Source: Candidatus Buchananbacteria bacterium (GTDB lineage: Bacteria; Patescibacteriota; Patescibacteriia; 2-01-FULL-39-33). From it: 41,650 nucleotides of DNA. Both the position numbers and the translations under genes were made by a program. The notes below the pieces were generated by a model. The model was not told where the DNA came from. It was given only the letters and a program-made list of their open reading frames with translations, and made no database searches. Position 1 is the first letter of the stretch, and each line of letters begins with the position of its first letter. Below, piece by piece: positions 7,994 to 37,174 of this stretch. The stretch is from positions 1-41,650 of the forward strand of contig CAIPBY010000036.1 of NCBI GenBank assembly GCA_903863425.1, written 5' to 3'.

Positions 7994-8218
7994 ATGAAAC
8001 AGATTTTAGTTGAAGCTAGGCCGAACTCATCGAAAGTAAGTATTGAGAAAGTGACAGATCAGGTGTACAAGGTGAAGCTTACTGCTCCACCCGTTGATGG
8101 CAAGGCCAATATTCAGTTGATAAAAGTTCTCGCAGATTATTTTGAGGTGAGTAAGAGTCAAGTAACAATCAAGGCCGGGAAAACGTCAAAAACCAAGGTG
8201 GTGATAATATCTGGATAA
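7994..8218 (+). CDS. DUF167 (YggU-like) small protein
   Basis: 74 aa with the pattern PPVDGKANIQLIKVLADYF ... KSQVTIKAGKTSKTKVV, characteristic of DUF167. Confidence 0.75.
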   Translation: MKQILVEARPNSSKVSIEKVTDQVYKVKLTAPPVDGKANIQLIKVLADYFEVSKSQVTIKAGKTSKTKVVIISG

Positions 8219-8261
8219 GCTGAAGACAATCCTAGTTGAATATAATTAGAAAATAAGCTAT

Positions 8262-8288
8262 AATCCCTTATGCGGCATGGGATTTTTG
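8262..8288 (+). terminator. intrinsic terminator after the DUF167 gene
   Basis: AATCCC (8262-8267) / GGGATT (8279-8284) stem followed by a T-run. Confidence 0.5.
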
Positions 8289-8349
8289 GTTGTTTTTCTG
8301 TAATTTTGCCTAAAATTAGTAAAAATTGTAAATTTTAATCTAATCCAAC

Positions 8350-8378
8350 TTGACAAATAATGGCTCACGTGATAGAAT
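8350..8378 (+). promoter_or_regulatory. sigma70-type promoter TTGACA-17-TAGAAT driving the candidate ncRNA
   Basis: TTGACA at 8350-8355, 17-nt spacer, TAGAAT at 8373-8378. No ORF follows it. Confidence 0.6.
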
Positions 8379-8594
8379 ATTATATTGCGTAAAGGGAGGA
8401 CATTACCATTCATGACTCTGCAGGCACGACAAGCATGGGATTATGACAAGGATTATTTTGGTCCCACAAGACTCGAATTTTACCTTAGAATAATTTCTTG
8501 TCTGCAGGGTTATGAGTAGTATTTAGCAATCTGCGAGCCCGTAAAATTTCAAATTTGTCACCTTCCAATTAAATTTGAGAAAACTTTTATTTCT

Positions 8595-8628
8595 TCCGCC
8601 CAAGGCGGATTAATCCGCCTTGGGCGGA
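8595..8628. repeat. perfect 34-nt palindrome TCCGCCCAAGGCGGATTAATCCGCCTTGGGCGGA inside the ncRNA candidate
   Basis: The two arms 8595-8610 and 8613-8628 are exact reverse complements. Each arm is also its own CCGCC-N3-GGCGG mini-hairpin, the same motif used as a terminator at 15988-16008 and 36300-36314. Confidence 0.85.
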
Positions 8629-8791
8629 TCGCTCGGGTGGGCTGCTACGGTCAGGCACGACAAGCATGGGAATTTCTGTCAGCTTCTTTCGGGCCTCGGC
8701 TCAAAAATTGCTCCTAGAAATTTTCTTGCCTGGCCATAATAGCCCATCCGGGTCGGCTCGCAGTTTAATGAATATTACTGTCTAGCCATCG

Positions 8792-8814
8792 CTCCGCTAA
8801 CGCGGAGTTTTTTT
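8792..8814 (+). terminator. intrinsic terminator of the ncRNA candidate
   Basis: CTCCGC (8792-8797), loop TAAC, GCGGAG (8802-8807), then T7 (8808-8814). Confidence 0.7.
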
Positions 8815-8855
8815 GTTAATTAATTTGCTTGACTTATAATTTTTGTGTTATAATT

Positions 8856-9278
8856 ATGTCATATATGGGAGATAATAAACTACAAAAAAATAATTTTTTT
8901 CTTAATCAACCGGATCAAAAAGATGCGGTCCAAGATTGGTTTAGTGGGGAAGGGCAGTTGTCTTGCGATGTGTATCAGACCAATGACAGTATTGTGGTCA
9001 AATCAACTATCGCCGGCGTTGATCCGAGTAACCTAGACATCTCGGTGAGTAATGATATATTGACCATTCGCGGTTTTCGTGAGATGAGCGAGGAAGTAGC
9101 TGAGGCTGATTTTTTCAGTCGGGAATGCTATTGGGGATCATTTAGTCGGTCGATTGTTTTGCCTCAGGAAATTAATTCCAAGAGAGTTAGTGCTGGCATG
9201 AAAAATGGCGTCTTAACTATTAAATTGCCCAAGAAATACAAAACGACTTCCATCAAGATAAGGCAGTCTAATGACTAA
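8856..9278 (+). CDS. Hsp20 / alpha-crystallin small heat-shock protein
   Basis: Alpha-crystallin domain pattern (VVKSTIAGV, LDISV, LTIRG, FSRSIVLPQEI, GVLTIKLPK). The tracked TTG 8829 is really a -35-like TTGACT. The first ATG is 8856 (used). ATG 8865 is likelier if the mRNA is leaderless from TATAAT 8849-8854. Confidence 0.8.
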   Translation: MSYMGDNKLQKNNFFLNQPDQKDAVQDWFSGEGQLSCDVYQTNDSIVVKSTIAGVDPSNLDISVSNDILTIRGFREMSEEVAEADFFSRECYWGSFSRSIVLPQEINSKRVSAGMKNGVLTIKLPKKYKTTSIKIRQSND

Positions 9279-9286
9279 AATTTCCG

Positions 9287-11194
9287 ATGCTTAATTTTTT
9301 GAAAAAATCCGAACCGTTTCATAAATGGTGGCTACTTCTGGCAGGCGTAGTCGCTTTTTTTGTTGTGGTTGCGATTGTGGCAGTTGCCTGCATATTTTTC
9401 CAGGTGTCCTACAAATATGTTTTTTATCCTGGTACGCGCCTGGGAAATATTCCTATTCAAGGTTTGACTAGAGAGCAGGCTCTCGCCAAGCTTGATCCCA
9501 TAACTGACAAGATTGAGAAGAATGGCATGAAAGTTATTTATCAGGGTGATGGCAGTCTGAATTTGGATTTTACCGGCGCCGTATCGGCTGAGGCTAATCC
9601 TGATTTGGCGCGTAGTATTCTGACTTTTGATAATCATCAGGCCGTATATGATGCTTTTGTCCTCGGCCATAGCAATAATTTTTGGCAGAATATGTCGGCC
9701 GGATGGCAAATATTTGTATCCGGTAAGAATTTTCAGCCATCATTTTATTTGGACGATAATGCATTGAAACAAATGCTTTTTGATAATTTTTCTGCTAAGG
9801 AAATTAAACAGCAGAATGCCAAACCGACTATTGTTTGGCAGGGGAATGATCATACCGTAGCCATAGGTGATGAGAAAAGCGGACAGACTTTTAATTATGA
9901 CAAGGCGATTAGTGATATCAAATTAAACTTAAGCCAATTCAAAAATGATCCTATTATTCTTGAAAGTAAAGTCGCGGAACCGGAAATTACAAGAGTAGAG
10001 ATTGAGGGGTTAGTGCCGAAAATTGACTATGTCTTAGCTTCATCTTTACCAAAGTTTGCTTACAACAGTTCGACTTGGTCCATGGATAAGAAGAAATTAT
10101 CTGCCATGCTGGAATTCAAGAAAGACAATGGAGAAGTTGTGTTGGGCATGAATCATGATTTGTTTATGGCTTGGTTTAATACTGTTATTGCTTCCAAGAT
10201 AGATGTGGAAGCCAAGAATGCGCTTATTGAAATGAAAGATGGGCAATTGCAGAAGATTTCTACTAATTCTGACGGACTCAAAGCTGACGGAGAAAAGGCT
10301 TACGTTGATGCCAATAATGGCTTATCGACAAATCAGTGGCCGGTTCAAATTGCAGTCAACAAAGTTGCGCCTGAGGTGGCCGTGGGAGATATAAATGATT
10401 TGGGGATCAAGGAAATAATCGGCACGGGTGAATCAAATTTTGCGGGGAGTCCTTCGAATCGAAGACACAATATCGCCAACGGCGCTAGTAAAGTGCATGG
10501 CATACTAATTAAGCCGGGCGAGGAATTTTCTTTGATTAAGGCTTTGGGAGATGTAGATGGCTCTACGGGATATTTGCAAGAGTTAGTAATTAAGGGAAAT
10601 AAGACCATGCCAGAATATGGCGGAGGCTTGTGTCAAATCGGTACGACTGTTTTTCGCGCTGCCATGGGTTCAGGTTTGCCTATTACCGAAAGGCGCAATC
10701 ATTCTTACAATGTGACTTATTATCTGGAAAATGGTTTGCCCGGAGTTGATGCTACTATTTATATTCCGCATCCGGATGTAAGATTTATAAATGATACTGG
10801 ACACTATGTCTTGATTCAAGCCAAGATTGTCAAAGACAAATTGACTTTTGAATTTTGGGGAACAAAGGATGGCCGTACCTCCAGTAGGACTACGCCCAAA
10901 GCTTGGGATTGGGTTTCTCCGCCTCCGATGAAGATAGTGCCAACCACTGATTTGAAGCCAGGACAGAAAAAATGCACCGAGAGCGCGCATAAAGGCGTGA
11001 AGGCGTCGTTTGATTATCTTATTACTTATGCGGATGGGACGGTGAAGAAACAGAATTTCTATTCGGTGTACAAGCCGTGGCAGGCCGTGTGCTTGGTGGG
11101 CGCGACTAGTACTCCGGTAGTATCTAGTACGACGAGTGATATTGTTGGTACGCCGGATAATCCGGTTTCTACGACCGCGACCAGCACGCCTTGA
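9287..11194 (+). CDS. VanW-domain membrane-anchored protein
   Basis: N-terminal TM helix (WWLLLAGVVAFFVVVAIVAVACIFF). VanW signature GGGLCQIGTTVFRAAMGSGLPITERRNHSY. Ser/Thr/Pro-rich C-terminal tail. Confidence 0.8.
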   Translation: MLNFLKKSEPFHKWWLLLAGVVAFFVVVAIVAVACIFFQVSYKYVFYPGTRLGNIPIQGLTREQALAKLDPITDKIEKNGMKVIYQGDGSLNLDFTGAVSAEANPDLARSILTFDNHQAVYDAFVLGHSNNFWQNMSAGWQIFVSGKNFQPSFYLDDNALKQMLFDNFSAKEIKQQNAKPTIVWQGNDHTVAIGDEKSGQTFNYDKAISDIKLNLSQFKNDPIILESKVAEPEITRVEIEGLVPKIDYVLASSLPKFAYNSSTWSMDKKKLSAMLEFKKDNGEVVLGMNHDLFMAWFNTVIASKIDVEAKNALIEMKDGQLQKISTNSDGLKADGEKAYVDANNGLSTNQWPVQIAVNKVAPEVAVGDINDLGIKEIIGTGESNFAGSPSNRRHNIANGASKVHGILIKPGEEFSLIKALGDVDGSTGYLQELVIKGNKTMPEYGGGLCQIGTTVFRAAMGSGLPITERRNHSYNVTYYLENGLPGVDATIYIPHPDVRFINDTGHYVLIQAKIVKDKLTFEFWGTKDGRTSSRTTPKAWDWVSPPPMKIVPTTDLKPGQKKCTESAHKGVKASFDYLITYADGTVKKQNFYSVYKPWQAVCLVGATSTPVVSSTTSDIVGTPDNPVSTTATSTP

Positions 11195-11649: not shown

Positions 11650-11721
11650 GGCCCTATCGTCTAACGGTTAGGACACCAGGTTTTCATCCTGGTAATCGGG
11701 GTCCAACTCCCCGTGGGGCTA
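11650..11721 (+). tRNA. tRNA-Glu (anticodon UUC)
   Basis: 72 nt: acceptor GGCCCTA/TGGGGCT (two G-U pairs), D arm GTCT-AACGGTTA-GGAC, anticodon arm CCAGG-TTTTCAT-CCTGG (TTC at 34-36), T arm CGGGG-TCCAACT-CCCCG. CCA is not encoded. Confidence 0.85.
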
Positions 11722-11738
11722 CAAGTTTGGATTAGAAG

Positions 11739-37113: not shown

Positions 37114-37174
37114 ATAATAAATTAATGCGACATGTTTTTGTTGTCTTTTCGGAGGTGACTTTGTAAAATAAATT

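Follow-up and report, generated by a model that had tools for sequence, protein, structure and literature searches.

The raiA motif, OLE, ROOL and GOLLD RNAs are free-standing transcripts with strong covariation, invariant loops and lineage-wide distribution, whose function is not obvious from comparative genomics. 6S RNA is a rod-like molecule of about 180 nt with a large two-strand central bubble that mimics an open promoter, and bacterial signal recognition particle (SRP) RNA carries a GNRA-type tetraloop with conserved symmetric and asymmetric domain IV loops near its tip. Glycine riboswitches coexist in singlet and tandem forms. Patescibacteria, also referred to as the candidate phyla radiation (CPR), comprise a large share of bacterial diversity; they are mostly uncultured and possess tiny genomes with little that is dispensable. 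Here, a structured RNA that shares the listed properties of raiA, OLE, ROOL and GOLLD was analyzed in a 41.6-kb stretch of DNA from a Candidatus Buchananbacteria bacterium (contig CAIPBY010000036.1; hereafter, in its whole length, the window, to which all coordinates and strands refer unless another locus is named). It is near certain that the element consists of two modules of about 105 nt within one free-standing small RNA, and this holds for its existence, strand, structure and family membership. The family is uncatalogued (absent from Rfam 15) and strongly conserved in Patescibacteria. The novelty lies in the family, while the mechanism discussed below is a proposal.

The RNA gene is located in the intergenic region 8219–8864, between a DUF167/YggU gene and hsp20. 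Its parts are the following:

8350–8378, + strand: promoter with TTGACA, 17-nt spacer and TG-extended TAGAAT, scoring 11/12
8385–8815, + strand: two-module small RNA transcript of about 430 nt, with ends placed from the promoter and terminator positions
8410–8515, + strand: module D1, with closing stem 8410–8426/8499–8515 (17 bp), loop CGACAAGCAU at 8427–8436 and inner helices
8421–8440, + strand: core copy 1, CAGGCACGACAAGCATGGGA, exact match
8516–8539, + strand: 5' arm of the long-range helix around linker and D2 (from inverted repeat and fold)
8541–8590, + strand: predicted linker hairpin with loop GUCACCUUCCA at 8557–8567, then UUGAGAAAA at 8575–8583
8595–8628, + strand: G+C-rich palindromic hairpin of a perfect 17 bp, TCCGCCCAAGGCGGATT/AATCCGCCTTGGGCGGA (inverted repeat, 100% complementary)
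8631–8754, + strand: module D2, with closing stem 8631–8657/8728–8754 (25 bp), loop at 8658–8667, inner helices and a UCGG-type tip
8652–8671, + strand: core copy 2, CAGGCACGACAAGCATGGGA, exact match
8756–8779, + strand: 3' arm of the long-range helix (from inverted repeat, fold and covariation)
8791–8815, + strand: intrinsic terminator, a 7-bp stem followed by a T run

The structure of the window RNA was taken as the minimum free energy (MFE) fold of 8385–8815, with −185.7 kcal/mol. Against shuffled sequence, the + strand reached z = −11.9 and the − strand z = −5.8. The conserved GG/CU step near the tip of D1 is formed by 8460–8461 with 8472–8473. A covariance model was built from the window's relatives and applied to the window and to metagenome loci. 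In the window, it matched exactly twice, at 8640–8744 (80.8 bits) and at 8409–8516 (76.8 bits), while the best score on the opposite strand was 16 bits. This agrees with an earlier first-pass annotation of the window, which had proposed an internal duplication of one structured module.

That annotation had reported an identical 20-nt core, and CAGGCACGACAAGCATGGGA was indeed found as an exact match on the + strand at 8421–8440 and 8652–8671, its sole two copies in the window. A third copy with up to three mismatches was absent from the window, and 100 shuffles yielded 0 matches. A dispersed DNA repeat had been named as the case that would speak against a structured RNA; the window holds two copies, and both lie inside the RNA. 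Among the matches listed, each related genome was represented by one locus, and contigs of 0.57–0.88 Mb likewise carried a single true locus each. In both copies, the first six nucleotides of the 20-mer (CAGGCA) close the long stem in the MFE fold, the next ten (CGACAAGCAU) are unpaired and face a single U on the opposite strand, and GGGA opens the inner helix. The core is positioned, as had been described, at the distal end of the long closing stem and in the junction after it.

Folding also returned the stems that had been drawn, a failure of which would have counted against the structure. The closing stems of D1 and D2 differ in sequence as claimed; the statement that both pair fully had to be corrected for D2, where C8648/A8737 and C8645/A8740 are single mismatches. 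Both inner helices, AUUAU/AUAAU in D1 and AAUUUCU/AGAAAUU in D2, are present in the fold and differ in a compensatory manner, as noted before. The motif said to be shared by the 3' strands is real, but it was loosely written and its D2 coordinates were off by one: the exact shared block is TTTCTTGyCTG at 8494–8504 and 8722–8732, with TAGAA before it. The suggested selection on structure was supported by covariation both within the molecule and across the more than 150 homologous module copies that were compared overall.

Two further observations concern the core. Within 8426–8438 (and 8657–8669), A occurs at every third nucleotide (A-CG-A-CA-A-GC-A-UG), an (ANN)4 periodicity that may or may not matter. 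Upstream of the RNA gene, a terminator-like hairpin after the DUF167 gene (8262–8290; AATCCC...GGGATTTTT) includes GCATGGGATTTT; this repeats part of the 3' end of the core a third time, lacks the rest of the module and is probably a chance match.

Homologues were collected in two ways. The 18-mer GGCACGACAAGCATGGGA was scanned through one genome per species, and at least 119 stretches matched. Ten of these stood isolated in unrelated surroundings, for the most part in coding sequence from other phyla, and were judged to be due to chance. The true loci number at least 109 (108 from the scan plus the window), all with the same hairpin; individual homologous loci are labelled with L-numbers below. 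Since this set was chosen by an exact match to the core, it carries an ascertainment bias, and for that reason an independent set of 80 metagenome loci was fetched by VanW homology alone. Nearly all informatively labelled loci among the matches listed belong to Patescibacteria, the labels being Candidatus Uhrbacteria, Buchananbacteria, Kerfeldbacteria, Falkowbacteria and Veblenbacteria, 'Parcubacteria group' and 'Patescibacteria group'. About 40 third-party annotation (TPA) metagenome-assembled genomes (MAGs) are labelled 'uncultured Gammaproteobacteria bacterium' (e.g., L001, L002 and L006); they share the RNA and the gene context ClpP/TsaD/DUF167-RNA-vanW-hsp20 with named Patescibacteria MAGs. 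Because of this common context, the gammaproteobacterial labels are probably wrong or placeholders. A phage origin was considered and dropped, the core 18-mer being without a match in IMG/VR.

The module measures 103–114 nt (115 distinct copies). It is composed of a long covarying closing stem (17–31 bp or longer, typically about 25 bp), an invariant asymmetric internal loop, covarying inner helices, and an invariant G.U/G-C step beneath a length-variable tip. In the internal loop, CACGACAAGCAYGG is opposed to YUCUUG, i.e., 5'-CA|CGACAAGCAY|GG against YUCUUG. When 115 copies were aligned by MAFFT, 85.8% of the cells were paired in the 40-pair structure, and two-sided changes occurred in 30 pairs. 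When 124 copies were aligned with the model instead, 88.1% of the cells were paired and 33 of the 40 pairs showed two-sided changes. In the controls, pairing fell to 66.3% in shuffles and to 33–50% with the 3' partners slid. The GCAUAGG variant of the core is compensated on the opposite strand, the pair 31-157 of the alignment being GC in 106 copies and AU in 9. G.U is invariant at two pairs and almost so at a third, where 107 of 115 copies have G.U and the others G-C; over all helices, G.U was counted 639 times compared to 185 for A.C. Because of these (near-)invariant G.U pairs and the excess of G.U over A.C, the + strand was assigned as the RNA strand.

In the independent set, the model matched 55 of the 80 metagenome loci, or 54 of the 70 that extend at least 350 nt downstream of vanW. 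All 55 matches were on the strand convergent with vanW and just beyond its 3' end. Among the 58 distinct sequences of this set, CACGACAAGCA and the apical GG/CU step (G.U then G-C) were each kept in at least 97%, and the GG after CACGACAAGCA and the 3'-strand UUCUUG each in at least 90%. The pair just outside CA/UG covaried, occurring as GGCA/UGCC, GUCA/UGAC, GACA/UGUC and CUCA/UGAG. The tip varied in both sequence and length (4 to about 150 nt), with the GG/CU step beneath it kept. The largest expansions of the apical hairpin, of about 150 nt, were seen in L038 (4456–4720) and in L156 (minus strand, around 6237); expansions of about 75 nt occurred in L169 and L199, and of about 40 nt in L166–L170, L189 and L190. 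Two ideas on the loop were rejected. A pseudoknot partner was sought from −150 to +350 nt and no recurrent complementary segment was found, the recurrent CTTGTC being the module's own 3' strand. Loop–loop kissing through the palindrome CAUG was discarded as many members have CACG.

Known RNA families did not account for the element. With Rfam 15 at gathering scores, only a transfer RNA (tRNA) was detected in the window and nothing on the RNA element. At E values up to 10, the region 8150–8950 gave noise only, and two relatives gave generic microRNA-hairpin noise. In 18 related loci, Rfam 15 returned only tRNAs and one unrelated small RNA (sRNA). ARAGORN predicted no transfer-messenger RNA, and no description of this RNA was found in a literature search.

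The RNA is framed as an independent transcription unit throughout the family. In nearly every genome locus, a promoter of the form TTGACA-17-TAnnnT precedes the core, usually TG-extended and most often 45–110 nt away. In the independent set, 40 of 53 loci reached a promoter score of at least 10/12, compared to 7% of control windows. The 3' ends differ between subfamilies. In several, a U run directly follows the closing stem, so that the RNA comprises a short leader plus a hairpin of 120–140 nt, about 150 nt in total. The Uhrbacteria-type RNAs, of about 190 nt, possess a separate terminator, and all 21 two-module relatives show a hairpin plus T run at the terminator position. In some subfamilies, an A run is found before the stem and a T run after it.

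A further conserved element, absent from the window, was noticed beside the Uhrbacteria/ClpP-type genes. Between the RNA terminator and the vanW stop lies the block GATCTTAC...GCAAG...TGTGGATAA (5272–5319 in L019), with an equivalent in 37 Uhrbacteria/ClpP-type loci (e.g., L004, L011 and L018). The minus strand of this block carries a DnaA-box-like TTATCCACA and then a promoter-like TTGCnn-17-TAAGAT aimed back into the RNA gene, which could be an antisense promoter.

The first-pass annotation had advised a search for single-domain versions. These exist and are the majority: about 80 of the 109 listed loci contain a single module, in an RNA of about 150–190 nt, and two modules are present in about 25 (about a quarter, the window's relatives included). 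Two-module RNAs from 21 species could be aligned from end to end and share one order of parts: a −10 element with TG extension, a short leader, D1 (in which CAUAGG or CAUGGG is usual), the long-range helix, the linker, a variable G+C-rich hairpin, D2, the return strand and the terminator. When the MFE fold of the window was mapped onto this alignment, D1 and D2 were 89–98% paired. In the long-range helix 8516–8539/8756–8779, 93% of the cells were paired, and two-sided changes affected 12 of 15 pairs. The pairs of the predicted linker hairpin (8541–8590) showed little covariation. The MFE fold also joins 5' leader and 3' tail; this pairing was discarded, since it is not conserved (30–35% of cells paired). 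In the place of the palindrome at 8595–8628, which is the site of a multi-helix junction, the relatives carry other hairpins or none; it looks like a lineage-variable or lineage-specific insertion.

GTCACCTTCCA and TTGAGAAA were invariant in 21 of 21 aligned two-module RNAs. The CACCTTCC motif with the CACCUUCC loop was present in two-module loci only, and in no single-module locus among those listed. As a separate observation, the loop GUCACCUUCCA, which is invariant in the two-module RNAs, as is the UUGAGAAAA after it, resembles the anti-Shine-Dalgarno tail of 16S ribosomal RNA (rRNA) and can pair with GGAGGUGAC.

The two-module loci are always found behind the same upstream genes, Metallophos and DUF167, with DUF167 upstream in 22 listed loci including the window. 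These shared upstream genes, together with a linker loop confined to the clade, indicate that the fusion is an old tandem duplication in one clade, the window's own. The closest relative of the window among the matches listed is L025, a Candidatus Buchananbacteria MAG. Tandem but unfused module copies were found elsewhere, at L061:4124–4388, L087:2386–2666 and L099:3975–4242. In L061, the copies are two near-identical genes with a T run after each; in L087 and L099, the second tandem copy scored lower, at 59 and 39 bits, respectively. The RNA gene has been duplicated more than once.

In the window, the RNA gene is surrounded by the following genes:

7994–8218, + strand: DUF167/YggU gene, the upstream neighbor (Pfam match)
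8865–9278, + strand: hsp20 (Pfam match)
9287–11194, + strand: vanW/PG_binding_4 (Pfam match)
11650–11722, after vanW: tRNA-Glu(UUC) (Rfam/ARAGORN)

The upstream gene varies by clade and encodes ClpP, TsaD, a metallo-beta-lactamase-fold protein, NAGPA or DUF167. The other side is far more constant. A VanW/PG_binding_4 gene (about 630 aa) adjoins the RNA in 91 of 109 listed loci and is convergent with it in 88; of the 18 listed loci without vanW, about half break off a few hundred bases or less from the RNA, where a neighbor would not be visible. Since hsp20 is located upstream of vanW in 78 listed loci, the two were taken to form an operon. In the window, L025 and L071, this operon is inverted, and the order is RNA, hsp20 and vanW on one strand. 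Promoter-like sites separate from that of the RNA precede hsp20 in the window, after the terminator at 8791–8815. In the independent loci, the distance from the vanW stop to the 3' edge of the RNA model was at most 50 nt in 18 of 55 and at most 100 nt in 35 of 55, and in some loci the stop abuts or overlaps the closing stem. VanW proteins share 32–60% identity across lineages. VanW domains have lately been identified as L,D-transpeptidases (PMC11348318). A tRNA is also present at the corresponding place in L025 and beside the operon in L036, and local synteny reaches beyond the RNA gene.

As regards function, we tentatively favor an abundant trans-acting scaffold or decoy RNA whose invariant internal loop docks a conserved partner, although its probability is set somewhat short of even. 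Each module would dock a putative conserved partner acting in trans, for which a protein or some other universal component of the cell is the most likely candidate. The recognition surface would be formed by the invariant asymmetric loop and, some two turns of helix from it, the apical G.U/G-C step, and the fused form may offer two docking sites plus an extra contact loop that is messenger RNA (mRNA)-like or rRNA-like. That the module count varies, from one to a fused pair or tandem genes, fits such a binding-site logic. Given its tail-to-tail packing against hsp20-vanW, the hairpin probably also serves as a terminator between two convergent transcription units. The scaffold or decoy role was retained because the riboswitch, pure cis-antisense/terminator and seed-pairing readings fit poorly. 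Several points weigh against it. The adjacency to hsp20-vanW is very constant and hints at a role tied to the operon, which a general scaffold or decoy leaves unexplained. A ligand pocket, a base-pairing seed or a tertiary contact would account for the invariant loop equally well. Abundance was deduced from promoter quality alone, the docking partner is putative, and all support is computational. The anti-Shine-Dalgarno-like loop, occurring in the two-module form only, is not part of the core function of the family.

In one rival reading, the RNA would be a convergent cis-antisense partner and shared terminator of hsp20-vanW; the hairpin would stop both units, and complementarity to the 3' end of vanW would control the stability of the operon mRNA. 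Arrangement speaks for it: vanW is immediately downstream and convergent in 88 of 91 listed genome loci and in all 55 metagenome loci with the RNA, its stop is within 50 or 100 nt of the model edge in the 18 and 35 loci given above and sometimes touches the closing stem, and the A-run/T-run flanks make the hairpin a bidirectional terminator in some subfamilies. The reverse strand folds well too (z = −5.8). However, the complementarity is automatic in this arrangement and gives no reason for 11–14 nt of loop to stay invariant while VanW is only 32–60% identical. The co-directional operon of the window, L025 and L071 does not overlap the RNA, yet the modules are fully conserved, and the invariant G.U pairs would become A.C mismatches on the other strand. 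We consider this cis-antisense role unlikely. Pairing in trans appears more improbable still. Here, the RNA would be an sRNA with the CGACAAGCAY loop as a seed for mRNAs, and in the two-module form GUCACCUUCCA would be a second seed hiding Shine-Dalgarno sites. The loop is invariant and single-stranded in the consensus structure, and its complement contains AUG (vanW of the window starts with ATGCTT), but its predicted pairing with the hsp20 and vanW initiation regions (mean −7.9 and −7.4 kcal/mol, respectively) was no better than that with other genes (−8.5 kcal/mol), and it would be unusual for a seed to be buried in an internal loop flanked by a long helix on either side. Regarding the second seed, GUCACCUUC pairs on paper with GGAGGUGAC by eight Watson–Crick pairs plus one G.U, and GGAGGTGAC-like sites are present upstream of open reading frames of the window (e.g., at 37149). 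Nevertheless, the anti-Shine-Dalgarno-like loop is absent from single-module members, and sites complementary to either conserved loop were not enriched in the window.

The likeness to cooperative two-aptamer riboswitches drawn by the first-pass annotation did not withstand the comparison. In a tandem cooperative ligand sensor, each module would be an aptamer with the internal loop as its pocket; invariant junction nucleotides between covarying helices are a typical aptamer pattern, and singlet and tandem forms coexist here as well. The Rfam riboswitch models, however, remained without a match at E values as high as 10. Promoter and terminator belong to the RNA gene itself, and with the next gene convergent in 88 of 91 listed genome loci and 55 of 55 metagenome loci, there is nothing downstream to regulate. 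Closing stems of 17–31 bp or longer, without competing terminator or antiterminator pairing, provide no expression platform, and a sensor of this kind is regarded as very unlikely; as an RNA acting in trans, it may still bind a ligand. The likeness to pseudo-symmetric RNAs, also drawn by the first-pass annotation, gained no support and met no contradiction. Barely any credence was given to an rRNA mimic acting as a decoy for a ribosome-associated factor, in which the loop strands would imitate the 23S flanks of helix 71 and the linker loop the 3' tail of 16S rRNA. Nucleotides 1936–1947 of E. coli 23S rRNA (AAAUUCCUUGUC) match the 3' strand of D1 (8490–8504) in 11 of 12 positions, the single best match in 16S plus 23S rRNA, but the family-invariant part of the match is only YUCUUG and CACGA..AYGG, and AAAUU lies in the covarying helix P2. 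The segment 1964–1973 (GCACGAAUGG) equals the 5' core (8423–8439) minus CAAGC, which requires that a 5-nt insertion be assumed, and the register relative to the helix is off by 4 nt. Both 23S segments flank helix 71 and are unpaired in the Rfam large subunit rRNA consensus, and GUCACCUUCC resembles GAUCACCUCC of 16S rRNA; the strand order, on the other hand, is circularly permuted, and the 3' strand of the RNA pairs with GGGAUUU, unlike in 23S rRNA. Finally, a CPR-specific new fold, which for a large part of the Patescibacteria would have the rank of 6S or SRP RNA, was envisaged as the receptor of a housekeeping-type ribonucleoprotein or of a sensor. Single modules would be homodimeric or act with a dimeric partner, and the window RNA would be a covalently fused pseudo-symmetric dimer with an added rRNA-like (anti-Shine-Dalgarno) loop and a functional coupling to hsp20-vanW as the operon of the cell-wall L,D-transpeptidase. 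This extended picture is doubtful, at about the same level as the cis-antisense role.

A central role is likely for a single-copy RNA gene that has a near-perfect promoter and a loop of 11–14 nt which remains invariant while neighboring proteins fall to about 35% identity. The fold is new, simple and well defined, and with more than 150 natural variants it is suited to structure determination and to covariation benchmarks. The coexistence of one module and a fused pair constitutes a natural experiment in RNA domain duplication, and the constant association with hsp20-vanW, which encodes a small heat-shock protein and a VanW-type L,D-transpeptidase, offers a concrete entry point to CPR envelope biology.

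Compared to described systems, the single-module RNAs are similar in size to 6S RNA and share a strong promoter with it. In contrast to the two-sided central bubble of 6S RNA, their loop has 10 nt opposite 1 nt, and 6S models remained unmatched at E up to 10. Bacterial SRP (4.5S) RNA differs in that the tip of the present family is variable and the invariant loop is about 25 bp away from it; no SRP model matched. With tandem glycine-type riboswitches, the family has in common two homologous domains per RNA, singlet relatives and conserved nucleotides at helix junctions, but it is located outside 5' untranslated regions, lacks an expression platform and a covariance model match, and exhibits very long closing stems and a convergent next gene. 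Convergent cis-antisense RNAs and bidirectional terminators share the tail-to-tail position at the 3' end of vanW and the A/T-run flanks seen in some subfamilies, whereas the sequence of this family is conserved beyond such needs and the module is kept where the operon is inverted. Like CsrB/RsmY/RsmZ and CrcZ, the family shows a repeated recognition module whose copy number differs between species, and its promoter suggests abundance; unlike them, it has no GGA-loop or CA-motif repeats and no Rfam CsrB/Rsm match, its unit being a 105-nt module with CGACAAGCAY. As compared to raiA, OLE, ROOL and GOLLD, none of which it matches in sequence or structure in Rfam 15, the family is much simpler, being built from one irregular hairpin module of about 105 nt, is restricted to Patescibacteria and occurs in one- and two-module forms.

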